Below are positions 47,132 through 61,088 of a stretch of 64,000 nucleotides of DNA, piece after piece. How positions within the stretch are numbered: position 1 is the stretch's first letter; each line of letters opens with the position of its first letter. Below the pieces are notes generated by a model. The model made no database searches. It was not told the origin of the DNA and worked only from the letters and a program-made list of their open reading frames with translations. This DNA is from a virus: positions 30,012-94,011 of the IMG/VR virus record IMGVR_UViG_3300031949_000013; one strand, given 5' to 3'. The position numbers were made by a program, and so were the translations under genes.

Positions 47132-47133
47132 AT

Positions 47134-48079: not shown

Positions 48080-48083
48080 AGGG

Positions 48084-48157: not shown

Positions 48158-48177
48158 AAAAAGAATCTCTACACCTG

Positions 48178-48246
48178 TGGCGATGAGAGGACTTGAACCT
48201 CAGCGCAAAAGCTTATGAAACTCCGCTCCCACCTTGGGACACCGCC
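48178..48246 (-). tRNA. tRNA-Met(CAT), probably elongator, short D-arm
   Basis: Loop TT-CAT-AA, GGC acceptor start. Confidence 0.7.
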
Positions 48247-48256
48247 ATTATCTTTG

Positions 48257-48330
48257 CACCCCTGGCAGGATTCGAACCTGCATCTCCTGGCTTAGAAGGC
48301 CAGAGCCCTGTCCAGTTGGACCACAGGGGC
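48257..48330 (-). tRNA. tRNA-Arg(TCT)
   Basis: Loop CT-TCT-AA. Confidence 0.9.
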
Positions 48331-48334
48331 ATGT

Positions 48335-48406
48335 TGGAGTCCCGGGAGGGAATCGGACCCTCGAAGTCGATTTTGCAGACCGACTGCCGACCCATCGAAC
48401 CGGGAC
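48335..48406 (-). tRNA. tRNA-Cys(GCA)
   Basis: Loop CT-GCA-AA, U73, CCA. Confidence 0.8.
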
Positions 48407-48601
48407 ATCTTGGTCGTTTTGGTTCGCAGACGACCTTACTGCGGCCTTCCAAGCCATCAGGCGATCCTTTGCAGGGTGCTTCGGCCGAAGTCCTGATCCC
48501 CAATGGAGAGTCCCATGTTATCCCACTTCTTGGAAGACGACGCACAATCTCTGGTAGCCCTAAGTCTCAACCCAGGGTCAGAGAACGGAGACAAGCTCCG
48601 G

Positions 48602-48672
48602 AGCAGGTAACGGGAATCGAACCCGTGTCTGGACGTTGGCAACGTCCTGCTAGACCTTCCAGCTATACCTGC
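48602..48672 (-). tRNA. tRNA-Gly(GCC)
   Basis: Loop TT-GCC-AA. Confidence 0.9.
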
Positions 48673-48875
48673 ATGCTGCACCTGAAACTAACCTCAGCAC
48701 CGAGGAATTGAACCTCGTCCCCCGGGTTACGCACCCGGTATGCTACCGGCACACTCGCACCAAGTCGAGCTTCAGGTTCCGTCCGGATTGACCTGCCCAA
48801 TGGCAGATCCGGCGGCACGGTCGCCAAGTCTTACGTCCGAAGACATTGCCGTGGAAGGCTCGACAAGGTTCACGA

Positions 48876-48950
48876 TGGAGCGGGACATGGGAATCGAACC
48901 CACCTGGATCTGCTTGGGAAGCAGATGCGGCACCTTGCCGCCTCTCCCGC
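48876..48950 (-). tRNA. tRNA-Gly(CCC)
   Basis: Loop TT-CCC-AA, CCA. Confidence 0.88.
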
Positions 48951-49127
48951 ATTGTGGTGCTTTTTCTCCGGCCAGCTTTCCATGGAAACTAACTGAAGCT
49001 TCGTGGGGTGGCCATAGCACCAAACCAAGTGCTCTGACGTGGTTCCGTAAACCCCGCGTTCGGTGCCCCTTAGCGGGCAGAACATGGTGAGCATCCCACT
49101 CTAGATTCCGAGGAACCTGTAGAATTT

Positions 49128-49239
49128 GAGACGACAAGAGGTGCCGAGAGGTGCCTCCATTAGGCGACCAGGCGAAAGTTGTCTTTGGCGCCCGGTATTG
49201 AAATCGAATCAATTGTACTCCCAAGCTGGCATTCGTCTC
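49128..49239 (-). ncRNA. Y RNA-like 1 (permuted tRNA cargo)
   Basis: GAGACGAATGCC..GGGAGTACAAT, T-like arm, closed acceptor, D-like arm, TTGTCGTCTC. Confidence 0.8.
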
Positions 49240-49241
49240 GG

Positions 49242-49313
49242 AGCGGGTAGGGGGAATCGAACCCCTCGTCGTCTGCTTGGAAGGCAGACACTCTACCATT
49301 GAGCTATACCCGC
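49242..49313 (-). tRNA. tRNA-Gly(TCC)
   Basis: Loop CT-TCC-AA. Confidence 0.92.
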
Positions 49314-49316
49314 GTG

Positions 49317-49859
49317 TCAGACTGACCACAGAAAGTGACCTAAATCTTCTGCCCAGTCCTCGGCGCCTTTGGCCGAAGGATGGATCCCATCGTTGATCAA
49401 TTTGATGCCCAATGGTTCAGCATCGTGAACCCGATCCGCACCACTCTCTCGGATACCTTTGCGAACAGCGTCGATTGGGTAACGTAACTTCGGGGGTAGA
49501 AGCCAAACAACCTGGACTTTACGTCGGTAAGCTAGTGCAACGAGACGCTTGGCTCTCTCTGGAAACTTCATTCGATTCACCGGCACGCCATGATCGTTGA
49601 CGCCCAACGAGATCAAGACCCTGTCGGGCTTGTATTGCCGGAGAGCATCCACGAACCAGTGTTCCTTAATCCACTGGTCCACGTTGGTCCCACCTCGTGC
49701 TGAGGTATGGAGCTTCTTGCCGTACTTCTTGGCAACCCGCCACAACCGAGGAGACAACATGTACGCCAGACTGTCTCCGATCAGGAGCGTCGGTCTCGAC
49801 TCAGACGCTAGAAGCCAGGGACTTATGAGACTGGCCAGAAGAAAAGCACGTCGGTTCAT
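49317..49859 (-). CDS. SGNH/GDSL hydrolase with Tat-like signal
   Basis: MNRRAFLL, IGDSLA, LGVND, DGIHP. Confidence 0.88.
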   Translation of the reverse strand: MNRRAFLLASLISPWLLASESRPTLLIGDSLAYMLSPRLWRVAKKYGKKLHTSARGGTNVDQWIKEHWFVDALRQYKPDRVLISLGVNDHGVPVNRMKFPERAKRLVALAYRRKVQVVWLLPPKLRYPIDAVRKGIRESGADRVHDAEPLGIKLINDGIHPSAKGAEDWAEDLGHFLWSV

Positions 49860-49867
49860 GTTACCGG

Positions 49868-49938
49868 AGCGGATGACGGGAATCGGACCCGTGTCCCTAA
49901 CCTGGCAAGCTAGGACTCTACCATTGAGCTACACCCGC
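49868..49938 (-). tRNA. tRNA-Gly(GCC), second copy
   Basis: Loop TT-GCC-AG. Confidence 0.85.
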
Positions 49939-49941
49939 AAG

Positions 49942-50052
49942 ACTGTGACTGACCCCTGTCGGGCTTCCGTGTATAAGACGGAGTGGGGACCATCCCCAAA
50001 CGAACACCACCAGGGCACTCGTGCCGGAATCGAACCGACTATTTATCACAGC
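49942..50052 (-). ncRNA. Circularly permuted tRNA-like RNA retaining a TAT anticodon arm
   Basis: Order: closing stem, T-arm, closed acceptor, D-arm, anticodon arm TCCGT-CTTATAC-ACGGA, closing stem. Confidence 0.6.
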
Positions 50053-50108
50053 TTCCTATTCGGTTGTCTCCACAAAGGAGTGCCGAGAGGCGAGGCCGTT
50101 CACCTCGG

Positions 50109-50179
50109 AGCCTCCAGAGAGAATCGAACTCTCGCCGGTCCCATACCAAGGGACTACTCGACCTTCGAGCTATGGAGGC
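50109..50179 (-). tRNA. tRNA-Thr(GGT)
   Basis: Loop TT-GGT-AT. Confidence 0.9.
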
Positions 50180-50303
50180 ATTGGGCAGTCTCTCCTGCTG
50201 TTACACCACTGTGGCAGGTGTCGCCCTCCGTTGTGCTGGAGACGCAGTCGAAGAAACCGGTGGTCCCACGATCCAAAAGATCGTCATCCGCTGCTTCGGC
50301 TAG

Positions 50304-50374
50304 TGGAGCCAGAGAGAATCGAACTCTCATTTCCAGCTTGCAAGGCTAGCACACTCCCGTTGTGTTATGGCCCC
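50304..50374 (-). tRNA. tRNA-Ala(TGC)
   Basis: Loop CT-TGC-AA, G3:U70. Confidence 0.92.
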
Positions 50375-50383
50375 ATGGTTGGG

Positions 50384-50459
50384 TGGTACCCCCGCTCGGA
50401 TTCGAACCGAGAAACAATCAGCTTCGAAGGCTGAAGCCTGTATCCATCAGGACGAGGGC
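50384..50459 (-). tRNA. tRNA-Arg(TCG)
   Basis: Loop CT-TCG-AA, CCA. Confidence 0.85.
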
Positions 50460-50461
50460 AT

Positions 50462-50538
50462 TGGTTGCAGGAGCCGTGTTGCACCGGCATGGCCAAGGTT
50501 ATGAGCCTTGGTTGGGAGCTAGGACTACCCTTCCTGCG
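50462..50538 (-). tRNA. tRNA-CAT, initiator-like (C1:A72), atypical D/T loops
   Basis: Loop CT-CAT-AA, CCA. Confidence 0.7.
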
Positions 50539-50539
50539 G

Positions 50540-50613
50540 CGTCTCTGGCAGGAGTCGAACCTGCATGAACCCAGCTTCGGAGGCTGGTGCCTTATCCATT
50601 AGGCCACAGAGAC
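50540..50613 (-). tRNA. tRNA-Arg(CCG)
   Basis: Loop CT-CCG-AA. Confidence 0.92.
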
Positions 50614-50865
50614 ATTGTGAATCAGTCTCAATCGACGACGAAGCTTCCGCATCGCCTGCCACTCGATCTGGCGAACCCTCTCTGCACTCAGTCCAAGAAT
50701 GAAAGCAATCTCTTCCAGGCGGGTCTCTCCAACATCGGCGAGATCCAAGACACAAAGAGTGTCACTGTTGCTGGTTCTTTGGTGGTACACGCAGGAAGAC
50801 CACTTGCAAGGTCTTGCCTCGTTAATCCCTCCAGGTAAGCAGTCACCACGTGTCTTCGGATCCAC
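50599..50865 (-). CDS. Small Cys-rich protein with sigma70 region-4 HTH
   Basis: TRLEEIAFILGLSAERVRQIEWQAMRKLR. Confidence 0.75.
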   Translation of the reverse strand: MDPKTRGDCLPGGINEARPCKWSSCVYHQRTSNSDTLCVLDLADVGETRLEEIAFILGLSAERVRQIEWQAMRKLRRRLRLIHNVSVA

Positions 50866-50892
50866 AGAATCACCGCTACACCAAATAGTTTG

Positions 50893-50964
50893 CGGGGCCG
50901 ACGGGAATCAAACCCGCCTCGCTGGCGTGACAAGCCAGTCGCCTCATCAGATGCGTACGGCCCC
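50893..50964 (-). tRNA. tRNA-Asp(GTC)
   Basis: Loop TT-GTC-AC. Confidence 0.85.
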
Positions 50965-50968
50965 ATTG

Positions 50969-51040
50969 CGATGCTACGGGGAGTCGAACCCCGATTTTCT
51001 CCGTGACAGGGAGATGTCCTAGCCGTTAAACGATAGCACC
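50969..51040 (-). tRNA. tRNA-Asp(GTC), second copy
   Basis: Loop CT-GTC-AC. Confidence 0.92.
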
Positions 51041-51044
51041 AATC

Positions 51045-51385
51045 CTGAGCATCTCTGTAAGCGGGGTTCTGTCGTGGATAGTTATTCCTCTAGGCCCACC
51101 GTCACCGATGGGCTCAAGCAGCAACCCGGAGACTCGGGCGAGCAGCCCTCGAACGTCCCCTGTTTGCCTTGCTCCGGGCCTCGCCCCATGCCTCACGTGT
51201 TACCACGTGAGCGGTGGGCTTTTACCCCACCGTTTCACCCTTACCTAATGCAAGCACTAGGCGGTCTGTTTTCTGTTGAACGAGTGAGACATCACTGCCT
51301 CCCAGGCGTTACCTGGAACCCTGCTCTATGGAGCCCCGACTTTCCTCAGGGCCGGAGAAGCCCTGCAACTATCTGAGGTACTCAA
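51045..51385 (-). ncRNA. rnpB: RNase P RNA (bacterial type A)
   Basis: P4 halves GAGGAAAGTCGGGGC and ACAGAACCCCGCTTA; GGGTGAAACGGTGGGGTAAAAGCCCACCGC; GGAGCAAGGC; P1 terminal stem. Confidence 0.93.
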
Positions 51386-51391
51386 GTTGTT

Positions 51392-51542
51392 GAGAATGGT
51401 GACAAGGGACGCAGAGACTATTTTGGGACCTGTGCTCTGCCAACTGAGCTACGTCCTCCGTAATCGTTTCCGGGGAGAACGACGGGACTCGAACCCGTGA
51501 CCACTGGTTTGAATTGTAATCCCTACAGCATTCACCACTCTC
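51392..51542 (-). ncRNA. Y RNA-like 2 (canonical YrlA architecture)
   Basis: GTGGTGAATGCTGTAGGGATTACAAT, T-arm GGTTCGAGTCC, closed acceptor, D-arm GCTCAGTTGGCAGAGC, TTGTCACCAT. Confidence 0.9.
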
Positions 51543-51544
51543 GG

Positions 51545-51618
51545 TAGGCGCACTGAGAATCGAACTCAGACCTCCAGTTTATCAGACTGGCGTCCAGAAC
51601 CAACTAGACTATACGCCT
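51545..51618 (-). tRNA. tRNA-Ile(GAT)
   Basis: Loop CT-GAT-AA. Confidence 0.9.
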
Positions 51619-51622
51619 GTAG

Positions 51623-51695
51623 CGTCCCCACAGGGAGTCGAACCCTGATCTTCTCGCTGAGAACGAGAGATCCTGAGCCATTAGACGATGGGGAC
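51623..51695 (-). tRNA. tRNA-Glu(CTC)
   Basis: Loop TT-CTC-AG. Confidence 0.9.
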
Positions 51696-51706
51696 ATGAA
51701 TGAAAG

Positions 51707-51838
51707 GCGACGACAAAAGTTGGTGTGTCAACACCTCATCTCCAAGGTTTCCCTCTTCGAAGGTGGGTATCGATCCCACTCCTCCAGCTCTTGCGAGCTG
51801 ACGTGCTGACCATTGTAGACAACACCGGCATTCGTCGC
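51707..51838 (-). ncRNA. Y RNA-like 3 (non-permuted D/AC/T-like cargo)
   Basis: GCGACGAATGCC..CTACAAT ... TTGTCGTCGC. Confidence 0.75.
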
Positions 51839-51915
51839 TGGCGTCCCCAGAAGGATTCGAACCTTCATGAACCAGGTTTCGTAGACCTGTGCCTTATCCA
51901 TTAGGCCATGGGGAC
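51839..51915 (-). tRNA. tRNA-Arg(ACG)
   Basis: Loop CT-ACG-AA, CCA. Confidence 0.93.
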
Positions 51916-52300
51916 ATGAAGTCGTCGATGCGTGCGGAGTCGATGGCAGACTGCGCATACAAGATCACACTTGGCGATCTCCCGCAGAATAACCTCTCGG
52001 CTGACCCTGAGATTGCGCATCGTCGCGACGGCCATCACCTTCTTACCTCGAACATGATCGAAGTCCATCGCACACGGATGATACTCGTTACCGCAATCTA
52101 TGCAGGGCTTCCTCTTCAACTCGTTGATGAACTCGTCGTAGGCAAGGTTGTGAGCCCTGGCCTTTGTGAGATAATAAGCCTTGTTTTCTCGGTAATGCCG
52201 GCGAGTGTACTGCCGATGGCATTCCTTGCAGAAAGGGTTGAAGCCGTCTTTCCGGGACGTGTTCTTGGTGAGTCTAACAAATAGATTCGTAGACCTTACA
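51901..52300 (-). CDS. HNH-like endonuclease (start uncertain, possibly 5'-truncated)
   Basis: CKEC, CIDCG...DFDHVRG...KCDLVCAVCHRLRT; paralog of 56470-56952. Confidence 0.65.
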
Positions 52301-52307
52301 CTCTTCC

Positions 52308-52382
52308 TGGTGACCCCAGCGAGTGTCGAACTCGCTTTTTCAGCGTGAGAGGCTGATGTCCTAGCCGGTAGACGATGGGGCC
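52308..52382 (-). tRNA. tRNA-Glu(CTC), second copy
   Basis: Loop CT-CTC-AC, CCA. Confidence 0.9.
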
Positions 52383-52612
52383 GTATCGAAGTCTGGGAAG
52401 ATGGGCTGGAAAGGCTTTCGTCGAGGAGCTTCCGGGGGCTGTGTGCTTGCCTCGACAAGAGCTTCCGGGGGCGGTGTGCTCTCCTCAATCGTTACTTCCG
52501 AGGAGCGTGGTGCTACAGCTCTGAAAGAGGAAGACTCACAGGCAAAGCTGCAATACTCGGTAGTCGTGTATACCGCTGGCTTCTGACCACACCAAGCACA
52601 AGGTCGTTTCAC
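52361..52612 (-). CDS. Small Zn-binding hypothetical protein
   Basis: CAWCG...YCSFAC. Confidence 0.5.
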   Translation of the reverse strand: MKRPCAWCGQKPAVYTTTEYCSFACESSSFRAVAPRSSEVTIEESTPPPEALVEASTQPPEAPRRKPFQPIFPDFDTAPSSTG

Positions 52613-52614
52613 TT

Positions 52615-52690
52615 TGGCGCCCCTGGCAAGATTCGAACTTGCACCGACCACTTTAGGAAAGTGATGCCCTATCCGTTAGACCACAGGGGC
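52615..52690 (-). tRNA. tRNA-Arg(CCT)
   Basis: Loop TT-CCT-AA, CCA. Confidence 0.92.
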
Positions 52691-52702
52691 GTAGACTACA
52701 CC

Positions 52703-52789
52703 TGGCGGAAGATAGAGGTCTCGATCCCCAGTCCGTTCAGGACCGCACCGCTTTCAAAACGGGCTCAGCTCCTAGCCGATTTACCTTCC
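52703..52789 (-). tRNA. tRNA-Ser(TGA), 8/4 fold
   Basis: 8-bp acceptor, 4-bp T-stem, long D-stem, loop TT-TGA-AA. Confidence 0.82.
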
Positions 52790-52945
52790 GTAGTCGGCCC
52801 GCTGTTCTTTCTCAGAGAGCCTGGCCTTCTGCTCTTGCCGAATCTGCTGACCTAGGTTGCCCTTCATACCATTGCCCTTATGGGGCTTGCACCAAAGACA
52901 ACCAGCACGAAGGTCTTTCCGCTTACCACGCTTGTGATGCGCCAT
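52781..52945 (-). CDS. Small basic protein (54 aa)
   Basis: MAHHKRGKRKDLRAGCLWCKPHKGNG..., RBS AGGAG. Confidence 0.6.
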   Translation of the reverse strand: MAHHKRGKRKDLRAGCLWCKPHKGNGMKGNLGQQIRQEQKARLSEKEQRADYGR

Positions 52946-53063
52946 GAGTCACTCCTTGCCGGCGTCACCGGCTTGAAAGTGATCTCGTGGACATCCCAAA
53001 TGGGCGTCATGACCTGAGAAGTTGGCAGTTTCGGGGCGAGTTGTCAACCGTTTATGAATCCTC

Positions 53064-53495
53064 TTGGGCGTGGTCGTCTATCCTTCAACGACAAGCTTCC
53101 TACTCGCCATCGGCCCCTACGTGACCGACCAGGGAAAGTACGTGCTCTGGCAGGACCAGGGCCAACAGCTCTTCGGGCTTCAGCGGAGAACAAACCTGCA
53201 AGACATCCTAGCCATTCCCTTGGATGAGATCCTCTCAGAGCTTGGTCTCTTGCAATTCTGCTCAAACACCACCCAGCGAGCCTGGGTAGATACCTGGATG
53301 CGAGTCGTCGAGGCTGCTGTGACGTTGCCGGGTGTCGGCTCCTACTACTACAACCTCCTGCTAGCTCAAGCATCGGCCCATCTGACTCTCGGGGGCAACA
53401 GCAACATAGTTGCAACCCTCTCAGTCCAGGCGGGGGTAGCATCGAGCTTGAGCGGCAACAGCTCGCTTTTTGCAGATGCTACTGTGACACCCTGA
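53064..53495 (+). CDS. Hypothetical protein, antisense to the RNA operon
   Basis: 143 aa ORF filling a gap between tRNAs. Confidence 0.55.
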   Translation: MGVVVYPSTTSFLLAIGPYVTDQGKYVLWQDQGQQLFGLQRRTNLQDILAIPLDEILSELGLLQFCSNTTQRAWVDTWMRVVEAAVTLPGVGSYYYNLLLAQASAHLTLGGNSNIVATLSVQAGVASSLSGNSSLFADATVTP

Positions 53496-53570
53496 TGGTC
53501 GGAGATGCGGGGATCGAACCCGCCGACGCCGGTACCCGAAACCGGTGGCCCACCCTGAGCCTTATCTCCG
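53496..53570 (-). tRNA. tRNA-Pro(CGG)
   Basis: Loop TT-CGG-GT, CCA. Confidence 0.88.
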
Positions 53571-53572
53571 AT

Positions 53573-53646
53573 TGGTTGGGGCAGCAAGGATCGAACTTGC
53601 ATAGCGAGCTTCAAAGACTCGCGTCTTGCCATTAGACGATGCCCCA
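53573..53646 (-). tRNA. tRNA-Gln(TTG)
   Basis: Loop CT-TTG-AA, CCA. Confidence 0.9.
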
Positions 53647-53650
53647 AAAC

Positions 53651-53756
53651 GTACCAACGAGTAGTTGAGAGTCCGTGAGCACCAGCTCATACAGGCAGGA
53701 ATCGAACCTGGCCTTCCATAGGTTGGTTGGATTGTAAACCCTCAGGCATTTGGTAC
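53651..53756 (-). ncRNA. Y RNA-like 4 (T- and D-arm only)
   Basis: GTACCAAATGCCTGAGGGTTTACAAT ... CTCGTTGGTAC. Confidence 0.72.
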
Positions 53757-53784
53757 CGCCCCAGTCCGAAGACCGGGGTGAGTC

Positions 53785-53886
53785 TCACTTCGACCGCTTC
53801 TTGTTGCGGTACGCCTTTCGCCAACAAGGACGGCACATACAGGGCCGGCCGAGTAGCTCAGTGGCAATCAAACACCACCGACACAT
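53785..53886 (-). CDS. 33-aa Cys-rich basic peptide with hairpin-sequestered SD
   Basis: AAAGGAGGTGA then MCRWCLIATELLGRPCMCRPCWRKAYRNKKRSK. Confidence 0.5.
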   Translation of the reverse strand: MCRWCLIATELLGRPCMCRPCWRKAYRNKKRSK

Positions 53887-53978
53887 CAGCATCACCTCCT
53901 TTCAAGCGAGGTGAGCTACGGGGGTCTGTCCTTTCTGATAGTCATCTGTTCTCCTTGAAGTTGCTTCCGGAGAGATTG

Positions 53979-54049
53979 TTGGCGAGCAGGGACTCGAACC
54001 CCGATACCGAGAACCAGAATCTCGTGTCCTGCCATTGGACGACTCGCCA
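53979..54049 (-). tRNA. tRNA-Gln(CTG)
   Basis: Loop TT-CTG-GT. Confidence 0.9.
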
Positions 54050-54052
54050 AAT

Positions 54053-54203
54053 GTCGCGACAAGGTGTTGCAGAGACGTTCAACCCTTTCGGGACCGGTGT
54101 GTCTGCCGTTCCACCACTCACTCCGAAGAGTGAAGAGGGAGTCGAACCCTCAAGCTCTTTCGAGCGCCGGTTTGCTTATTGTAGTCCCTACTGCATTCGC
54201 GAC
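54053..54203 (-). ncRNA. Y RNA-like 5 (permuted tRNA-Leu-type cargo with variable arm)
   Basis: GTCGCGAATGCAGTAGGGACTACAAT, V-arm, T-arm, UUCG-capped acceptor, Leu-type D-arm GTGGAACGGCAGACAC, TTGTCGCGAC. Confidence 0.88.
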
Positions 54204-54205
54204 GG

Positions 54206-54289
54206 TGTCACCGAAAGGAGTCGAACCTTCACGCCCTTTTAGGACACGAGCACCTCAAGCTCGCGTGTCTGCCATTCCACCACGGTGAC
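54206..54289 (-). tRNA. tRNA-Leu(GAG), second copy
   Basis: Loop TT-GAG-GT. Confidence 0.92.
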
Positions 54290-54293
54290 GTAA

Positions 54294-54445
54294 ACCTGAT
54301 CCACTCAAAGCCCAAGGGAAGGGTAATGCAGGCAAGATAGACTTGGTGACCACCACGCTCGCACCTTCCCAGGTCGTAAGACCTGTCCGCACCCGACCAA
54401 GAAGGTTACGGAATTTACTTTCCCAGGGCTCTGAATGGATCAGGC
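54294..54445 (-). ncRNA. 6S RNA-like rod with central bubble
   Basis: ~28-bp imperfect closing stem, two-sided ~13-nt bubble, apical stem. Confidence 0.55.
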
Positions 54446-54447
54446 GG

Positions 54448-54520
54448 TACGGGACGTGGGGATCGAACCCACCTGATCTTGCTTGTCGAGCAAGTGCCGT
54501 CACCAGACGACAAGTCCCGC
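54448..54520 (-). tRNA. tRNA-Val(GAC)
   Basis: Loop TC-GAC-AA (C33). Confidence 0.85.
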
Positions 54521-54524
54521 ATGA

Positions 54525-54741
54525 TCAACCTCGACTAGAATGACCGAGACTGGCGCTCGTCACGCCTGTATGGCCGGCACATTACATCCCCACGGTGCCT
54601 TTCGACATCGTGTCCAGTTTGGATGCAGTTCGCCCCGCAGGAGATAAGTACGAGACCTATCTCCCGCCGTCGCTAACTGGATTGCTCCAGGCTCGCTACC
54701 TTAGGACCGTTATTGTAATCCCTGTCGGCATTCGAGATTGA
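54525..54741 (-). ncRNA. Y RNA-like 6 (cargo starts with 23S rRNA H69/H70 sequence)
   Basis: CTCGAATGCCGACAGGGATTACA-ATAACGGTCCTAAGGTAGCGA ... CTAGTCGAG. Confidence 0.8.
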
Positions 54742-54742
54742 T

Positions 54743-54817
54743 TGGTCAGGGCGGCGGGGATTGAACCCGCCAACGCCAGTCCCCCAGACTGGTGGCCCAC
54801 CTTGAGCCTTCGCCCTG
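54743..54817 (-). tRNA. tRNA-Pro(GGG)
   Basis: Loop CT-GGG-GG, CCA. Confidence 0.88.
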
Positions 54818-54828
54818 ATAGCTACATG

Positions 54829-54912
54829 CGGAGAACACTGGAGTCGAACCAGACACCTTTCGGTGCAATCGGTTTAGCAAACCGTTGAGCGTCCACACAC
54901 TCTTTGCTCTCC
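54829..54912 (-). tRNA. tRNA-Ser(GCT), 8/4 fold
   Basis: GGAGAGCA/TGTTCTCC acceptor, CTGG/CCAG T-stem, loop TT-GCT-AA. Confidence 0.82.
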
Positions 54913-54978
54913 ATAACCGCCCGCCTACCAGAAGTGTCCAGTGATTTCTCACTAACTGCCCCCAGTGCGCAACGGTAG

Positions 54979-55063
54979 CGGAAAACGGAGGTCTTGATCC
55001 CCAGTCCCGTAAAGGACCGCACTGCTTTCGAGGCAGGCTTGGCTCCTAGCCAATTCATTTTCC
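54979..55063 (-). tRNA. tRNA-Ser(CGA), 8/4 fold
   Basis: Loop CT-CGA-AA. Confidence 0.82.
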
Positions 55064-55067
55064 ATAG

Positions 55068-55114
55068 ACGACCTGTTCCGTTGCTCCCTTCCGGGCCTGG
55101 CGGGTACAGATCGT
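55068..55114 (-). ncRNA. ffs: Minimal SRP (4.5S) RNA domain IV
   Basis: CGCCAGGCCCGGAAGGGAGCAACGG core closed by ACGATCTGT/ACAGGTCGT. Confidence 0.78.
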
Positions 55115-55202
55115 TGGCGGAAAGCCGAGGTCTTGATCCCCATACCCTTTCAGGTACACATCGCCTTCCAAGCGAGTCTGGCCCCCGGCCAGTTGACTTT
55201 CC
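55115..55202 (-). tRNA. tRNA-Ser(GGA), 8/4 fold
   Basis: Loop TT-GGA-AG, CCA. Confidence 0.82.
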
Positions 55203-55223
55203 ATTGTTGACCCATCACTCGAT

Positions 55224-55484
55224 ATGGACTCGCTGGCCCAACGAGTAGCCAAAAGATTCTCCTTCAAGTACGTCCCGAAGGAGAAGAAGCAGCACAAGAT
55301 TGATCGGTTGATGGAGGTCATCCGAGACGCCACCGGCATATCTCGTGGCATCGCAGAGGACATCGCTGATGCTGTTGTCCGTGGACGGAATCTCGATGCC
55401 TTGAGCATTCAGAAAAACTGGCCCGTGGATGATGGGTTCTTAAAGGGACCATCGGGCCAATTATCTCTAAACGAACTAGGTTAG
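55224..55484 (+). CDS. Hypothetical protein (MDSLAQRVAKRF N-terminus), antisense to the RNA operon
   Basis: 86 aa ORF filling an inter-tRNA gap. Confidence 0.65.
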   Translation: MDSLAQRVAKRFSFKYVPKEKKQHKIDRLMEVIRDATGISRGIAEDIADAVVRGRNLDALSIQKNWPVDDGFLKGPSGQLSLNELG

Positions 55485-55502
55485 GGTCACGATGGGATTC
55501 GA

Positions 55503-55577
55503 TGGTCGGGGAGGGGAGAATCGAACTCCCAATTTCCTGTACCCAAAACAGGCGACCTACCATTGGCCTACACCCCG
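55503..55577 (-). tRNA. tRNA-Pro(TGG)
   Basis: Loop TT-TGG-GT, CCA. Confidence 0.9.
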
Positions 55578-55581
55578 ATTC

Positions 55582-55730
55582 AAGCGACGACGAGAATTGC
55601 AGAGACTCCGTTTAGGTGTCCTGACCACTAGACGACAGTGCAATGAGTCTTGTTCTGTTGCACCGCCAGGATTCGAACCTGGGTCACCCGCTTAGAAGGC
55701 GATTGTAATCCCTACTGGCATTCGTCGCTT
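55582..55730 (-). ncRNA. Y RNA-like 7 (permuted tRNA cargo retaining Arg-UCU anticodon hairpin)
   Basis: GCGACGAATGCCAGTAGGGATTACAAT-CGC CTTCTAA GCG, T-arm, acceptor, D-arm, CTCGTCGTCGC. Confidence 0.88.
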
Positions 55731-55805
55731 GGTGGCTAGGGTCGGGATCGAACCGACTACACGCGGATTTTCAATCCGCTGCTCTACCTTCTGAGCTACC
55801 TAGCC
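55730..55805 (-). tRNA. tRNA-Phe(GAA)
   Basis: Loop TT-GAA-AA, CCA. Confidence 0.93.
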
Positions 55806-56023
55806 AGATCCGGTTTTCACGTCTCCGGGCTGCACTACAGATTCGGTGGGGATGATATCGACGGGGGATGACCGGAAACCTGCCCAACCTCAGCTCCCGC
55901 TATTCTGTAGCCGCTGTGTTGAGAGACGCAAGCATCTCCAAGACCTAGGTGAAGTCGTGCCTTCCCAGGTTCAACACCTGCCCCGTGTGTAACGGACATT
56001 GAAGCCGTATGCACGAGACATCG

Positions 56024-56095
56024 AGCCCGCAGCCGGAATCGAACCGGCTTATCCGCCTTACGAGAGCGGTGCCTCACCATTTAGGCGTTACGGGC
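56024..56095 (-). tRNA. tRNA-Thr(CGT)
   Basis: Loop CT-CGT-AA. Confidence 0.9.
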
Positions 56096-56097
56096 AC

Positions 56098-56238
56098 AGC
56101 ATCGACGAGTTATGGAGGAGACCATCAACCCACCACTAACCGGGCTTCACTCCGGCCGAAGTGGATCGTCCCCCAATACCCACTACCGAAGTGATGAGCA
56201 TTGGCGGGACGATTGTAATCCCAACCGCATTCGATGCT
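56098..56238 (-). ncRNA. Y RNA-like 8 (two-hairpin non-tRNA cargo)
   Basis: AGCATCGAATGCGGTTGGGATTACAAT ... CTCGTCGATGCT. Confidence 0.8.
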
Positions 56239-56241
56239 TAG

Positions 56242-56312
56242 TGGAGATGAAGGGAATCGAACCCTTATTAGAAGACTGCCAGCCTTCCGTTCTCCCGTTG
56301 AACTACATCCCC
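56242..56312 (-). tRNA. tRNA-Ala(GGC)
   Basis: Loop CT-GGC-AG, G3:U70. Confidence 0.9.
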
Positions 56313-56316
56313 GTAG

Positions 56317-56387
56317 TGGAGTCATGGAGAATCGAACTCCAATTTCTGCGATGCGAACGCAGCGTACTCCCGTTGTACGATGACCCC
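56317..56387 (-). tRNA. tRNA-Ala(CGC)
   Basis: Loop TT-CGC-AT, G3:U70. Confidence 0.9.
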
Positions 56388-56396
56388 ATTTGCTTC

Positions 56397-56457
56397 GAGT
56401 TGACTAGGTGTTGCGAAGACTTCGTTTAGCCATTGTAATCCTCACGGCATTCAACTC
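56397..56457 (-). ncRNA. Y RNA-like 9 (minimal, stem only)
   Basis: GAGTTGAATGCCGTGAGGATTACAAT..GTCTTCGCAACACCTAGTCAACTC. Confidence 0.75.
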
Positions 56458-56464
56458 TCAGCGG

Positions 56465-56535
56465 CAGGGCTAGTAGGAGTCGAACCCACTCGGCAACGGA
56501 TTTGGAATCCGTCCGGCTACCTCAGCCTTAGCCCT
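56465..56535 (-). tRNA. tRNA-Trp(CCA)
   Basis: Loop TT-CCA-AA. Confidence 0.85.
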
Positions 56536-56952
56536 AAGTTTTACCCAACCTTGCTCGCGTGCTGTCTTTCGGCGATGGCAGTTGGCGCACCGAACCTCGC
56601 ACTTCAACATCTCTAATTGAATCTTGGCCCAGGAGTGACCGTTCATAATCATCCTAGCTATACCAGCCAACTTCTTCCCTCGAACATGATCCCAATCGAG
56701 GACTACAAGGTCATTCTCCCCGCAGTCTACACAAGATTTCCCTTGAAGGATTTCGAACACCCTCTTCCGACTCTCGTGCCTCTTGGCCAAGGTTCTCAAC
56801 CTGAACGGTTTGGGATTGTCGTAATACCCTTTCAGATTGACTTTCCGTTGGCACTGGCGGCAGATGCTCTGGCGAGTGCCCTTCTTTTTCGACCGCCAAT
56901 TGAAGTCCTTCTCCGGATCTTTCGGGTGTCTGCACTTTGGACATGTCCTCAT
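56470..56952 (-). CDS. HNH-like endonuclease reading through tRNA-Trp
   Basis: CPKC, CRQC, CVDCG...DWDHVRG...KCEVRCANCHRRKT. Confidence 0.82.
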   Translation of the reverse strand: MRTCPKCRHPKDPEKDFNWRSKKKGTRQSICRQCQRKVNLKGYYDNPKPFRLRTLAKRHESRKRVFEILQGKSCVDCGENDLVVLDWDHVRGKKLAGIARMIMNGHSWAKIQLEMLKCEVRCANCHRRKTAREQGWVKLRAKAEVAGRIPNPLPSGFDSY

Positions 56953-57176
56953 GCCTCTAAACTACCACAAGTAGTTGGAGCAACAGCCAAGAAAATTTAG
57001 CGGAACGGCAGAGCACCATTTGCCGTCCCTCATTGTATTCAGGTAGGTGACCCTATTGAGGCTAGAGTGGCGTACCTCAAACGGTGCAATTTGATCCACC
57101 ATCAGCCAGACTTTCCTGGCAGTCAACTCTCGTTACTTGTGCTAGCTGGTCCAGGCAAACCTTCACGAGTGTTTCC

Positions 57177-57252
57177 TGGTCCCTCAGGTTGGAATTGAAC
57201 CAACACCTTCTGCTCTTCAGGCAGACGCTTCCACCAGGTTAGCTTCTGAGGG
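57177..57252 (-). tRNA. tRNA-Phe(GAA), second copy
   Basis: Loop CT-GAA-GA, CCA. Confidence 0.88.
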
Positions 57253-57364
57253 TTGAGGCTGGGTTTTCGGGTTTTCACCGTGTGGTTATCCAGCAGACCA
57301 CATTCAGTGATGAGGCTCACTGCGGCCGTCAGCAGACTACTTCTTTAGCTCCGTCTGCTATGGA

Positions 57365-57438
57365 TGGTGACCCCACGGGGAATTGAACCCCGGTTCTTAC
57401 CTTGAAAGAGTAACGTCCTACCATTAGACGATGGGGCC
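57365..57438 (-). tRNA. tRNA-Glu(TTC)
   Basis: Loop CT-TTC-AA, CCA. Confidence 0.92.
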
Positions 57439-57442
57439 GAAC

Positions 57443-57511
57443 AAGTCCGACTAGGAGATGCCGAGATCTTTTTCATTTTCGGTGATTGTAATCCCGACGG
57501 CATTCGGACTC
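57443..57511 (-). ncRNA. Y RNA-like 10 (minimal)
   Basis: AGTCCGAATGCCGTCGGGATTACAAT..ATCTCGGCATCTCCTAGTCGGACT. Confidence 0.78.
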
Positions 57512-57513
57512 AG

Positions 57514-57587
<74 letters not shown>

Positions 57588-57588
57588 G

Positions 57589-57661
57589 AGCCGGCGACAG
57601 GATTCGAACCCGCCTAAACCTCGTTACAAATGAGGTGCTCTCCCTAGAGAGCTACGCCGGC
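57589..57661 (-). tRNA. tRNA-Thr(TGT)
   Basis: Loop TT-TGT-AA. Confidence 0.9.
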
Positions 57662-57773
57662 AAACGTGTGTTGTGACAAAATTCAGGAGGAGACTTGCTA
57701 GACTAACAGGGTTCATCGGGTCGGATTCAAACCAACCTTGCAGGGCTCATCTGCCCCCAAAGAGACATGATTA

Positions 57774-57845
57774 AAGGCCGACGAGGTTTCGCTGTAGAAC
57801 TTGGTTCTTTACAAGAGATTGTATTCCACAACAGCATTCGGCCTT
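57774..57845 (-). ncRNA. Y RNA-like 11 (minimal)
   Basis: AAGGCCGAATGCTGTTGTGGAATACAAT..TTCTACAGCGAAACCTCGTCGGCCTT. Confidence 0.78.
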
Positions 57846-57921
57846 GGGGTGACGTACGGGAATCGAACCCGCCATTGACCGGGTCACAGCCGGCCCCCTT
57901 CACCAGTTGGGTAACGTCACC
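57845..57921 (-). tRNA. tRNA-His(GTG)
   Basis: G-1:C73, loop CT-GTG-AC, CCA. Confidence 0.9.
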
Positions 57922-57929
57922 ATAGTTTC

Positions 57930-58080
57930 AAGCGACGACGAGGATTCGAGAGACAGCCAGTGTAGGAGCCCTTCTAAGTGCCAATCTCGTGACCGAGGTC
58001 ACGAGGCGGAATCTGCCTCCGCAAGGCTCCGGGCCTGGCTTGCCCTTGGTCGATTGTAGTCCCTCAGGCATTCGTCGCTT
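57930..58080 (-). ncRNA. Y RNA-like 12 (multibranch non-tRNA cargo)
   Basis: AAGCGACGAATGCCTGAGGGACTACAAT ... GTCTCTCGAATCCTCGTCGTCGCTT. Confidence 0.8.
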
Positions 58081-58155
58081 GGCGACCCGTGAAGGGATCG
58101 AACCTTCCACCGTCGGCTTAACAGGCCGCCGCTACACCTTGTCAGCTTACGGGTC
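58080..58155 (-). tRNA. tRNA-Asn(GTT)
   Basis: Loop CT-GTT-AA, CCA. Confidence 0.88.
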
Positions 58156-58239
58156 GTGTCGGCAAACTCGCTCATGGCAACCCAGGTCATCCCGTTGCAA
58201 GGACTTGCTGGGAGGCAACTCCACGAGGTCATCTACCGT

Positions 58240-58315
58240 TGGCTCCAGGGGCAGGAGTCGAACCTGCATGACCTTCCGTTAACAGCGGAGGCGGCTTACC
58301 TATGCCCACCCTGGA
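58240..58315 (-). tRNA. tRNA-Asn(GTT), second copy
   Basis: Loop CT-GTT-AA, CCA. Confidence 0.85.
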
Positions 58316-58487
58316 AAAACTGTGGGAACAGCCGAGAAGTGATCTTCCCGACTGTTCCCGCAGACGAGTCCAGGAGAGAAACATCACTTCCGCAGTCCCG
58401 GCCGCTGGAGCCCTTCGCTATGAAGGTCGATCACGCTCCGGCTGCTTCAGCACTCCGAAGAGTGCCTCAGTGGCGTTCCAAATCCTG

Positions 58488-58506
58488 TCGAGTTGTCAAG
58501 GACCAG
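58488..58506 (-). promoter_or_regulatory. boxA-like antitermination element
   Basis: CTGGTCCTTGACAACTCGA resembles rrn boxA (TGCTCTTTAACA / TTCTTTGAAAAC types). Confidence 0.45.
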
Positions 58507-58534
58507 AGAACCACCTGTGTGATTCTTGTTCCGG

Positions 58535-58606
58535 CTCAGGGTCTCGGGATCGAACCGAGATTCACGGCTTCAGAGACCGTTGTCTTGCCTATTGGACGAA
58601 CCCTGA
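58535..58606 (-). tRNA. tRNA-Gln(CTG), second copy
   Basis: Loop CT-CTG-AA. Confidence 0.9.
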
Positions 58607-58626
58607 ATATCTACTGCATCACTTCG

Positions 58627-58700
58627 TGGGTCTGGAGGGAGTCGAACCCTCATCTCATCGGGTAAGAGCCGAGTATGTTATCCATTGCCACCACAGACCC
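58627..58700 (-). tRNA. tRNA-Lys(CTT)
   Basis: Loop CT-CTT-AC. Confidence 0.85.
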
Positions 58701-58707
58701 GTGGGAG

Positions 58708-58778
58708 TGGGAGCACAGAGAATCGAACTCAGATCGACCGGGTAAGAACCGGCTGCTCTACCGTTGAGCTATGCTCCC
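58708..58778 (-). tRNA. tRNA-Lys(CTT), second copy
   Basis: Loop TT-CTT-AC. Confidence 0.9.
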
Positions 58779-58838
58779 CTTTCTTGTTTGAGTGCCGGTA
58801 TCACCGGCTTTCGCTTGAGCTTGATCATGATGTTCACC

Positions 58839-58913
58839 TGGTCGGGGGCACGGGGATCGAACCCGCCTCTCTCGGATTAAAAGTCCGCTGCGTCACCTTG
58901 ACGCCAACCCCCG
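58839..58913 (-). tRNA. tRNA-Lys(TTT)
   Basis: Loop CT-TTT-AA, CCA. Confidence 0.88.
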
Positions 58914-58971
58914 ATGATTGAATCGGGAGCCGGTGCGTTTGAGTTCCTTGAGAGACATCGTTCTTTCCTTG

Positions 58972-59055
58972 TGGAGCATGATGGAATCGAACCACTTAGC
59001 CGTTAGGCACCGCGTTTACAGCGCGACTGTCGTCCCAGCGACAACTTCATACTCC
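58972..59055 (-). tRNA. tRNA-Tyr(GTA), 8/4 (or 9/3) fold
   Basis: GGAGTATG/CATGCTCC acceptor, short T-stem, loop CT-GTA-AA. Confidence 0.8.
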
Positions 59056-59069
59056 GTGTTTTTGACCCT

Positions 59070-59109
59070 GAAACGACCGAGGCCGCCTCGGTTTCCCTTT
59101 GGCGGCCTC
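59070..59109 (-). terminator. Attenuator terminator hairpin before first tRNA
   Basis: GAGGCCGCC/GGCGGCCTC 9-bp stem with weak U tail (GGTCGTTTC). Confidence 0.6.
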
Positions 59110-59139
59110 ATGATCCCTCTCGGGTTGTCACTTTGCCGC

Positions 59140-59295
59140 CTAAGTACCCACCTCCGGATTGGCGAACTTGATGGAGGTGGCGGGAACGAGATACGAACTA
59201 TCCTGGCGCAGTCCTAGACCCATTCCGCAGACACACCACACCGTCAAGGCTTCTGCCTTCGCTGTGGTTTGGAGATGGAGTTTGGTAGCGAACAT
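59140..59295 (-). CDS. Putative attenuator leader peptide (51 aa, all 20 amino acids)
   Basis: MFATKLHLQTTAKAEALTVWCVCGMGLGLRQDSSYLVPATSIKFANPEVGT; stop overlaps antiterminator strand TTAGGCGGC. Confidence 0.6.
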   Translation of the reverse strand: MFATKLHLQTTAKAEALTVWCVCGMGLGLRQDSSYLVPATSIKFANPEVGT

Positions 59296-59417
59296 GATTG
59301 CTCTAAGAGGAGTTCCTTGTTAGGGAGATCCTCCGGTTCCTGGTAATGTACACCGGTTAGACGCCTCAGCCACAGAAAAATCAACCGGGCGATGTCGATT
59401 TTTCTAACGTCCCGAAA

Positions 59418-60419
59418 TCAAGGAGAAACTTGATTCGAGAGCTGGGTGTTCACCATGACCCCGTTGAAGGCCGACGCTCCGAGCCCTTGGCCGATCACTA
59501 GATAGGTCGGCTGGAACGAGATCCAATCCGCTGTGGGATCCGTAGTCCAATCCATGTCTGGGACAGCTACACCGTTCACAGTCAGAGAAGCATGTCGTGC
59601 AGAACCCGAGAGGAGGTTCTCAGAATCCCAACTCAAGCGAACCGACATCGGGGCTCCTGGGGAAAACGAGGCCGTGGAAGGAGTGACTTCTGCGACAAGC
59701 ATTCCAACCGCATCCGTGATACGGAGGAGCGGGCGATTGAGGCTGTCTACCGCGAGAAGGATGTACTTTGTAGGAGTCGTCAGGTTGTTGGTGAGGTACA
59801 GGACCGTTCTCTCTGGACCAGCATCCAAGCCACCGCTCATCCCTGACACAACAAAGCCCACATCAGCGACCGTCTCTGTGATCGTGACGTTGCCAGCGGA
59901 TCCGGGGGTGTCGTTCACGAGGAGAATTTGCCCTGGAGTACCCGGAGAAGCCGTGATGTCCAGGGAACCAGCCGTGTTGATAGCTGCGATGATGGCGGCC
60001 CTGACGGTGGCCAACGAGTCTGCACCCGTAAAAGCCACAGCGACATTTCCAGGAGTTACTGTGGCGTTATCATCGAACTCGAAGACAGACGGTGGGTTGA
60101 CTCCATCGTCGAGCGTGAATGTCTCAGTATCAACTAGCAGAGAGCCATCCACGGTCACAATAGAGCCTGAAGCCGCAGTCAACAGGATCACGGCACCAGA
60201 AGTGTACTGGACATCCAACGTGCCCCTCTGACCCGGGACCAGTGAAAGCGGAAAGACACCCCCTCCAGGACTTGAGAAGACGGCACCATTCAAGGCAGTC
60301 ACAACCGAAAGAGGAGCCATCGATTGTCCTCGCCATGAAACGAGGCCATCGGGGGTAACGGATGGTATGCTTTGTCCCTGATTGGTGACGAAGCCTGGGA
60401 CGAGGAAGTTGCTGGGCAT
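59418..60419 (-). CDS. Putative virion structural protein (beta-rich, LamG-like C-terminus)
   Basis: 333 aa, S/T/G/V-rich; ETFTLDDG..VFEFD..IIAAIN segment. Confidence 0.65.
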   Translation of the reverse strand: MPSNFLVPGFVTNQGQSIPSVTPDGLVSWRGQSMAPLSVVTALNGAVFSSPGGGVFPLSLVPGQRGTLDVQYTSGAVILLTAASGSIVTVDGSLLVDTETFTLDDGVNPPSVFEFDDNATVTPGNVAVAFTGADSLATVRAAIIAAINTAGSLDITASPGTPGQILLVNDTPGSAGNVTITETVADVGFVVSGMSGGLDAGPERTVLYLTNNLTTPTKYILLAVDSLNRPLLRITDAVGMLVAEVTPSTASFSPGAPMSVRLSWDSENLLSGSARHASLTVNGVAVPDMDWTTDPTADWISFQPTYLVIGQGLGASAFNGVMVNTQLSNQVSP

Positions 60420-60473
60420 TCGGGCTCCTTCCCTTCACTGGGGGTAAAAGTTCTTTTGCGTTCACCCCTGTAG

Positions 60474-61088
60474 ATGCCCGAGTTCCCGAACGAAGTTACA
60501 GCCCTCCTGCGGATGGCCTCCGAGAAATCGAAGACCGCCCAGAAGCGGTTCGTCTGTCGGGCTTTCAAGACTGACTGGAACCAGTTCGTCGAGGAATGGG
60601 CCAGCCGGGCCTATGTCTTCGTGGCCAACGCCTTCGGAGGCTACCAGCGAGAACCTCTCGTCGAAATCGTGGCCATGCACGATGGGGCTCATGCTGGAGG
60701 AGCCAATGCCAGCTTCGACCCGAGCACCGGCAGGATCACTCTCTCCTCGGTCATAGAGGGAAATCCTGGCTGCACCCTGGAGAAGATCACCCACGAGCTG
60801 ACCCATGCCGCCCTGGCCTCCTTCCCAGAGGATGTGTTCTACGACGAGGGTTCTGTGGATTATGCCGTTTGGATCATGGCCCACGCACCGGCCTGGGAGC
60901 CCTACAGGGCACAAATGATCGAGGCCGCAGCCTTCAACATCCAGGTCCGACGGGACAGAGCCCTCAAAGCCGGGTCCGACTGGGACCGAAAGAGGTGGGC
61001 TGGGGGTCTTCACGCTCACTTGGCCTACGGTCCCCACGTCATTTCCAGGCTCAGGCAGAAGAAGCTCGAAGGCGACTTCACCTGGTGA
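60474..61088 (+). CDS. Zincin-like metalloprotease domain protein
   Basis: ITHELTHA and YDEG. Confidence 0.7.
   Translation: MPEFPNEVTALLRMASEKSKTAQKRFVCRAFKTDWNQFVEEWASRAYVFVANAFGGYQREPLVEIVAMHDGAHAGGANASFDPSTGRITLSSVIEGNPGCTLEKITHELTHAALASFPEDVFYDEGSVDYAVWIMAHAPAWEPYRAQMIEAAAFNIQVRRDRALKAGSDWDRKRWAGGLHAHLAYGPHVISRLRQKKLEGDFTW

Follow-up and report, generated by a model that had tools for sequence, protein, structure and literature searches.

We describe an element on the minus strand of a 64,000-nt stretch of viral DNA (positions 30,012 to 94,011 of IMG/VR record IMGVR_UViG_3300031949_000013; hereafter, the window), namely a 51-codon open reading frame (ORF) that lies just upstream of an array of tRNA genes and contains codons for all 20 amino acids. 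The window is the final 64 kb of a 94-kb virus contig, with a G+C content of 55.7%, from an uncultured giant phage. We consider it probable that the element is a translation-sensing leader-peptide transcription attenuator that reports overall decoding capacity. This reading was the core of a prediction made earlier from the letters of the window (the original prediction), and it is now supported by an open coding frame, a selected all-20 content, competing RNA pairings predicted in 11/11 homologs and a promoter-like block.

A leader reading frame ahead of tRNA arrays

The leader occupies a 362-nt gap separating a 333-amino-acid (aa) ORF (60419-59418) from tRNA-Tyr (59055-58971), with 84 nt between the end of the leader ORF and the tRNA. 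Using ARAGORN, the array that follows (minus strand, 59055 to 44881) was found to contain 48 tRNA genes of 40 anticodon species, with all 20 amino acids represented. The features of the site, in window coordinates, are:

59345..59385, minus strand: promoter-like block of putative function, with a T-rich tract, a -35-like GTGGCT (59373-59368), a 17-nt spacer and a -10-like TACATT (59350-59345) after TG
59140..59295, minus strand: leader ORF, 51 codons plus UAG, peptide MFATKLHLQTTAKAEALTVWCVCGMGLGLRQDSSYLVPATSIKFANPEVGT, with 20 amino-acid types and 39 distinct codons
59148..59180, minus strand: P1, in-ORF hairpin of CCACCUCC (59180-59173) with GGAGGUGG (59155-59148) and a 17-nt loop, predicted in 11/11 homologs
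59135..59142, minus strand: region 2, UAGGCGGC, which joins the stop codon to the candidate antiterminator 5' strand, with GGCGGC at or one base past the stop in 11/11 homologs
59110..59131, minus strand: P2, hairpin between regions 2 and 3 (GUGA..CCC GAGA GGG..UCAU), which folds in every homolog
59079..59109, minus strand: terminator-like hairpin of regions 3 and 4, a 9-bp GC-rich stem of GAGGCCGCC (59109-59101) and GGCGGCCUC (59087-59079) with an internal loop and a GG-AAA-CC cap
59066..59078, minus strand: conserved tail GGUCGUUUCAGGG, an interrupted U-tract, in which GUCGUUU is kept in 10/11 homologs and L029 has UUGUCGUUUUU
58971..59055, minus strand: tRNA-Tyr(GUA), the first gene of the array (ARAGORN), 10 nt past the conserved tail and 23 nt past the hairpin

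On recomputation, the coordinates and counts that the original prediction had given for the ORF were correct, as were its coordinates for UUAGGCGGC (59143-59135) and for the terminator hairpin. The UAG stop (59142-59140) does lie inside UUAGGCGGC, where it is fused to GGCGGC, and the separate hairpin within the ORF is present as described. Two analyses that it had suggested, a comparison of codon diversity with random 51-codon windows and a look for analogous leaders ahead of the tRNA arrays of related phages, are reported next.

Taken alone, the window ORF is a mild post hoc oddity, of the 1-in-100 kind. Among 57,736 stop-free 51-codon windows from the six frames of the 94-kb contig, 0.91% contained all 20 amino-acid types, 0.41% had at least 39 distinct codons and 0.033% had both. 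Of the 40 anticodon species of the array, 35 are engaged by codons of the leader, compared to 28.0±3.4 for random 51-codon windows of the long ORFs of the phage, 1.25% of which reach 35. The all-20 content becomes significant because of its relatives, which comprise 11 DNA loci (11/11 complete) and 33 distinct full-length peptides (33/33 complete).

BLAST against a 452-kb viral contig revealed a homologous segment that is closely followed by a Tyr-like tRNA and then by Lys(UUU), Lys(CUU) and Gln(CUG). We also used two degenerate DNA patterns, one demanding TAGGCGGC and the other only the peptide end A-N-P-E-V-G-T plus TAG. BLAST and the patterns together yielded L007, L019, L020, L021, L022, L023 (identical to L025), L024, L026, L029 and L032 (identical to L030), while L014-L016, L018, L027, L028 and L031 were dropped as chance DNA-pattern matches inside coding regions. 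G001 (by BLAST), L029 and L032 were found without demanding GGCGGC, and amino-acid composition never formed part of the search criteria. All 11 DNA homologs lie directly ahead of a tRNA array, with the first genes in the order Tyr, Lys(UUU), Lys(CUU) and Gln(CUG). A profile search of a 5.8-billion-protein collection added 29 called peptides, gene callers having predicted the ORF in many assemblies; for these, the start was set at the last Met that left 47 residues or more. Within the 64-kb window, a covariance model of the 3' half of the leader found exactly one copy. No match to positions 58900-60500 was found by BLAST among 50,697 phage records, none was found in a search of a genome-contig collection, and profile and single-protein scans of viral contigs yielded nothing further. 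Synteny through the upstream 333-aa protein led to six viral loci, none of them near tRNAs.

All 20 amino-acid types were present within 49-58 codons in 11/11 DNA homologs, and in 25/25 database peptides under the start rule; overall, homologs span 47-63 codons, each with 20 types. Four shorter gene calls (35-45 aa) were without one to three types. P0017 is P0009 with a shorter N-terminus, P0018 is the L007 ORF read from its ATG, P0024 is without H, K and R and looks like a close relative of P0018, and P0011 is without His only. After pooling and de-duplication, exactly one Trp and one Tyr were found in each of the 33 full-length members, with a single Asp in 97%, a single Asn in 88% and a single His in 79%; eight types in all (W, Y, D, N, H, C, F and I) usually occur only once. 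In the window, the Trp codon is at 59235-59233 and the Tyr codon at 59193-59191.

The random expectation of completeness is 1.2-4.8% per sequence. When residues were shuffled within columns, which keeps column conservation, at least 8/10 complete sequences arose in 0/20,000 trials; for the 33-sequence set, such shuffles gave about 7 complete sequences and at most 14 in 5,000. A null model on tree edges, in which residues identical to the nearest relative were kept and the rest redrawn, gave a joint P of about 1e-7 to 1e-9, and the value was still about 1e-6 when like residues within ±3-5 columns were counted as inherited. In the alignment, a single-copy residue lost from its usual column reappears elsewhere: this applies to His in L023 and L029, Ile in L024, Asn, Lys and Phe in L019, Trp in L032 and P0029, and Tyr in P0016, P0023, P0025 and P0026. 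Asp is relocated by a change of RQD to RQG paired with a change of PEVGT to PEVDT, which places it at the second-last codon; this is found in both peptide subgroups, in P0013 and P0015 (MSS start) and in P0027 (MFAL start). As judged by sequence comparison, the all-20 content is a selected, family-wide property upheld by such compensatory relocations. Synonymous codons were over-dispersed as well, with 391 distinct codons summed compared to 354.6±6.3 under phage codon usage and 369.6±6.2 under uniform synonymous usage, a result that is only suggestive because close relatives are not independent.

The ORF also has the marks of a coding sequence. In the codon alignment, conserved residues show synonymous changes (TGT/TGC, TAT/TAC, ATC/ATT, AAT/AAC and CAG/CAA), and indels are whole codons throughout, so the frame is kept. 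Between L007 and L020 there are four synonymous differences and one inserted codon, without a single nonsynonymous change. The leader frame is the sole frame open in 11/11 loci, the others having stops in several or most homologs. Thus, the ORF is in all appearance translated, kept open and evolving as coding sequence. Peptide identity to the window leader drops to 27% and is roughly 30-40% among homologs, and the ratio of nonsynonymous to synonymous differences (pN/pS) is about 0.5-1.1 for most pairs, so the peptide sequence is hardly constrained, unlike openness and composition. Retention of openness and composition without sequence would be expected of a sensor and argues for this rather than for a protein.

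RNA architecture and a candidate switch

The promoter-like block is the sole alignable block in the diverged upstream regions of the 11 homologs. Its consensus is T-rich sequence and TTGC[GA]/TTGAC, N16-18 and TAnnn[T/C], 12-49 nt ahead of the start codon (49 nt in the window); a generic sigma-70 scan did not call it. As a putative promoter, it would make the ORF the first cistron of its transcript. A hairpin of AGAAAAAUCGAC and GUUGAUUUUUCU (59374-59405, minus strand) lies 13 nt past the stop of the 333-aa gene, with a U-rich 3' arm that overlaps the T-rich part of the block, and may terminate that upstream gene. The 5' untranslated region (UTR) of the window, L022 and L024 holds CUCCCUAACAAGGA (59304-59338, minus strand, in the window), which agrees with 9/11 positions of the rrn boxA antitermination box; the boxA-like CUCCCUAACAA was dropped as a candidate element, being confined to these three sequences.

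P1 lies inside the last 14 codons, and its 3' arm, which stops 5 nt short of the last sense codon, reads as a perfect Shine-Dalgarno-like sequence. In P1, 90% of cells were paired. The GAG and GUG of the 3' arm are invariant at synonymous sites even though the search patterns permitted GAR and GUN, which reveals an RNA-level constraint on the Shine-Dalgarno-like GGAGGUGG. P1 could act as a polymerase pause hairpin and its arm as a holdfast for the terminating ribosome. A downstream ORF served by the internal GGAGGUGG was considered and dropped, there being no conserved start codon after it; recoding of TAG was dropped too, since the ARAGORN list contains no suppressor tRNA and ORFs called with table 11 tile the window densely.

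Across the family, region 2 is (G)GGCGGC and region 3 is GGCCGCC. The original prediction had noted that GGCGGC at the stop could pair with the GCCGCC 5' arm of the terminator hairpin, and single-sequence minimum-energy folding predicts this pairing in 11/11 homologs: RNA folded up to region 3 forms P1 and a 6-11-bp 2:3 helix closing P2. When the RNA is masked from its 5' end through 12 nt past the stop, as it would be with a ribosome at the stop, the 3:4 hairpin forms in 11/11. The two full-length states are near-isoenergetic, lying a few kcal/mol apart. Covariation was evident in the lower stem of P2 (GUGA/UCAU, GUGA/UCAC, CAGA/UCUG and UUCA/UGAA), at the base of the 3:4 stem (GAG/CUC, GAA/UUC and AAG/CUU) and in its upper part (GG/CC, AGAC/GUCU and UCC/GGA), and in a model-fitted alignment helix covariation exceeded that of each of the 500 shuffles and of every slid control. 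An extra G in region 2 of L029 and L032 (UAGGGCGGC) is matched by GCCGCCCUG in region 3, and the 2:3 helix is lengthened by an A-U pair in L021 and L023. In the minimum-energy fold of the window, region 2 pairs with a segment of the 5' UTR; we treated this as chance, since that stretch is not alignable across the homologs; folding of the 5' UTR covered the window only.

The tail has the family form UU(C)(A/G)GUCGUUU(C/U)(A)GGG, with UCGGUCGUUUC in the window and UUAGUCGUUUU or UUGUCGUUUUU in relatives. Its GUCGUUU is complementary to GGCGGC through G-U pairs, and GUGCUUU in L022 loses this pairing. Predicted folds pair the tail with region 4 when the antiterminator is formed (7/11) or instead with region 2, giving a three-way junction (5/11). 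P0021 ends in PEVGTKAA with a stop three codons later, so that region 2 would be translated in it.

In the proposed mechanism, a promoter about 50 nt upstream would give rise to a transcript whose first cistron is the roughly 50-codon ORF, carrying at least one codon per amino acid for all 20 and spread across many synonymous codons. An unhindered ribosome would reach UAG while polymerase makes the downstream hairpin; standing at the stop, it would cover UAGGCGGC (region 2) and leave GCCGCC (region 3) to pair with region 4, and the 3:4 hairpin with its U-rich tail would halt or strongly lower transcription before tRNA-Tyr. With a ribosome stalled at least two codons before the stop, or never loaded, region 2 would be free to pair with region 3 around P2 as an antiterminator, and polymerase would continue into the tRNA genes. 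Because region 2 is flush against the stop, almost the whole ORF could sense a stall. The outcome would be negative feedback, in which a shortage of any charged tRNA prompts the phage to make tRNAs of its own. We infer termination by the hairpin, the direction of the switch, its physiological trigger and the roles of P1 and its arm, as well as any link to anticodon nucleases or 'rescue'. A more tentative proposal, to which we give somewhat less than even weight, is that of a 'pan-tRNA gauge', a minimal ORF stocked to test every amino acid and most isoacceptors, which would turn on a stable-RNA replacement kit (48 tRNAs, transfer-messenger RNA (tmRNA), RNase P RNA and Y-like RNAs, RtcB being encoded downstream) once anticodon nucleases cut the host tRNAs or infection depletes them. 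On this proposal, supplying tRNAs would be a regulated means of countering host defence and not a constitutive aid to codon usage.

Several observations weigh against the attenuator reading. As the original prediction had correctly remarked, the Shine-Dalgarno sequence and the U-tract are both weak: the former is weak beside those of many phage genes, and the tail GGUCGUUUCAGGG is not a clean U-tract, although the same phage has canonical terminators; a simple terminator scan did not call the leader hairpin. Region 2 would be freed again on ribosome release at the stop, so the model needs the ribosome to linger there. Seven of the DNA homologs came from the pattern demanding TAGGCGGC, making the invariance of regions 2-4 partly an ascertainment effect, and these regions are so nearly invariant that their pairings are beyond covariation testing. 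The completeness counts carry qualifications of their own: L007, L020 and L032 were given GTG starts because of homology to MS(S/T) N-termini, the ATG-started L007 has only 18 types, and in 8/33 members the last three codons are the sole source of Val or Asp. A stall in these codons is modeled to free at most 5/6 core bases of region 2, so that sensing of Val or Asp would be marginal there. RNA run X1 consists of assembled contigs only, without 3' ends or proof of transcription; one contig of an 89% relative spans 59173-59853. Finally, the share of the 14 kb that one leader could gate has to be judged in the light of a hairpin with a U-run that lies within the array. This hairpin has a 16-bp stem (GGGAACAGTCGGGAAG...CTTCTCGGCTGTTCCC) followed by the U-run ACAGUUUUUC at 58359-58324 (minus strand), between tRNA-Gln (58533) and tRNA-Asn (58315), and may be either a terminator within the array or a further small RNA.

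Alternative readings and known systems

The ORF might be a sensor whose output is not intrinsic termination, with ribosome position controlling Rho access, RNase processing or stability at the 5' end, or polymerase pausing at the hairpin and tail, and with a 3:4 hairpin that is not a terminator. We regard this as unlikely. It would fit the interrupted U-tract in a phage with canonical terminators, the conservation of the tail GUCGUUUCAGGG as sequence rather than as a mere U-run, and the three-way fold of region 2 with the tail, the predicted minimum in 5/11 homologs; a 14-kb untranslated transcript would also be open to Rho. However, the 2:3 versus 3:4 geometry, the stop abutting region 2 and the spacing match classical attenuators, the L029 tail is nearly canonical, and a C-rich, unstructured, rut-like stretch is not evident. 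Very improbable, in our judgment, is a checkpoint of reversed polarity, whereby finished translation and quick release at UAG would free region 2 and the array would be on only if translation works. Nothing competes for region 2 after release, P1 being self-contained, but an early-stalled or absent ribosome would free region 2 too, leaving the switch without an off state and the all-20 content without a purpose. Moreover, the Shine-Dalgarno-like arm of P1 is placed where a ribosome could be held at the stop, and the precedent of the whiB7 upstream ORF (uORF) runs the opposite way (PMC10274678).

The remaining alternatives deny the ORF a sensing role. That it encodes a small protein with its own job, the hairpins being an insulator, terminator or processing signal heading the tRNA array, would explain why gene callers report it in many assemblies and why there is conservation at the C-terminal NPEVGT and at the W-C, D, Y and P-T-S-I positions. 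Yet the conserved residues are mostly the single-copy ones, which shift position while their count is kept, NPEVGT overlaps RNA elements with fixed synonymous sites, the pN/pS values are those given above and the peptide has no Pfam match; completeness in 33/33 would be left unexplained, and we find this account improbable. It is harder still to credit a structured non-coding 5' leader with an incidental open frame. The 365-nt intergenic RNA does fold better than shuffles (z = -3.4) and contains several conserved helices, but the 5' two thirds of the ORF is without conserved structure, and a frame open in 11/11 loci at roughly 30-40% peptide identity, with indels in frame only and no other frame open throughout, runs counter to such a reading. 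An Rfam cmscan of positions 44000-60000 (E ≤ 1) gave no match between 59056 and 59420, T-box included.

To our knowledge, phage tRNA arrays have usually been viewed as constitutive codon-usage helpers or as spares against host tRNA-cutting defences, and we know of essentially nothing on their regulation. A full-text literature search returned no account of leader-peptide control of tRNA genes. If the attenuator reading is true, tRNA production would be feedback-controlled and the all-20 leader would be a clean natural sensor of 'any decoding failure'. The attenuation principle of amino-acid operons and whiB7 would then extend to viral stable-RNA genes, in a compact and testable part, about 230 nt long, that could signal when any one charged tRNA runs short.

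Classical leader-peptide attenuators include trpL, hisL, pheL, leuL, thrL and the ilv leaders; in the trp leader, a ribosome at the stop masks region 2. Like leaders of the trp and his type, the phage element has a promoter-proximal short ORF directly upstream of the genes it would regulate (the same layout in 11 loci), a stop beside an antiterminator 5' strand that competes with the terminator-like hairpin and an in-leader hairpin as a possible pause site, these pairings being predicted. Unlike them, it has no codon run for one or a few amino acids, each of the 20 being represented by about one to a few codons, its regulated genes would be tRNAs and other stable RNAs, its U-tract is interrupted, and its predicted state without translation is on rather than super-attenuated. 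In antibiotic-responsive leaders (ermCL, bmrB-bmrCD and those of ARE-ABCF genes such as msrD and vmlR), stalling in a short ORF remodels the RNA and turns on genes that counter the translation block. Those leaders rely on drug-specific arrest peptides, whereas the phage peptide is nearly unconstrained and its composition kept.

The closest published parallel to a mixed-composition leader ahead of a terminator/antiterminator is the whiB7/wblC uORF attenuator of mycobacteria and other Actinobacteria, in which a stall at any represented codon leads to readthrough (PMC10274678). The amino acids sensed are those present in the uORF, and one Trp codon is enough; expression rises when the start codon is lost, which makes on the default state, and the element is a general translation-stress sensor (PMC10274678). 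It is therefore an experimental precedent for single-codon sensing of many amino acids and for the default-on behavior that the phage folds predict. The M. smegmatis uORF contains 19/20 amino acids and that of M. tuberculosis is without several (PMC10274678); the whiB7 set varies and is Ala-enriched, unlike the phage leader, which is complete in 33/33. whiB7 also controls a bacterial transcription-factor gene (WhiB-like, Actinobacteria) rather than phage tRNA genes, and no sequence or Rfam relation between the two was seen. We regard the leader as a separate sequence family within ribosome-mediated attenuation, a known principle.

A long tRNA array, the trn operon of Anabaena sp. PCC 7120, is induced by translational stress and is under the control of TrcR, a repressor protein that acts at direct repeats overlying the promoter (PMC8421152, PMC10272220). 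Both arrays are extra, horizontally mobile sets of many tRNAs that are switched on by impaired translation (in the phage, by prediction) and are associated, functionally or genomically, with rtcB (phage: 40621-42033); the Anabaena reports do not mention a leader peptide or attenuator (PMC8421152, PMC10272220).

Genes of the array and its surroundings

Other features within and beyond the array are:

51042-51384, minus strand: RNase P RNA, class A, full (262 bits), within the array
44881-45216, minus strand: tmRNA with tag ANDNATAFGLAA, within the array
40621-43787, minus strand: vWA-domain protein and RtcB, downstream of the array
40621-42033, minus strand: rtcB, downstream of the leader and array

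The four ORFs flanking the leader had no match in PHROG or Pfam. The tRNA-Tyr gene of the window is oddly shaped, with only a weak tRNA-Sec-like match in Rfam (33.8 bits), and ARAGORN misses its homologs after the leader in L007 (1664-1750) and L023 (about 2840-2930) despite their alignment with the window tRNA-Tyr. Canonical intrinsic terminators were observed at 42200-42172 and 44019-43993 (both minus strand), with 12- and 11-bp stems followed by seven and five consecutive U; the first comes after the vWA gene and the second after the HNH gene, both close upstream of rtcB, and they show that the host polymerase uses ordinary terminators. Further genes of the contig include GroEL, ribonucleotide reductase and a RecD-like helicase. 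The array itself contains seven sub-threshold YrlA-like (weak Y-RNA-like) matches and is followed on the minus strand by an HNH protein, a vWA protein and RtcB. With RNase P RNA, tmRNA, the YrlA-like matches, the vWA protein and RtcB, the layout recalls the bacterial rsr-yrlA-rtcB RNA-repair locus.

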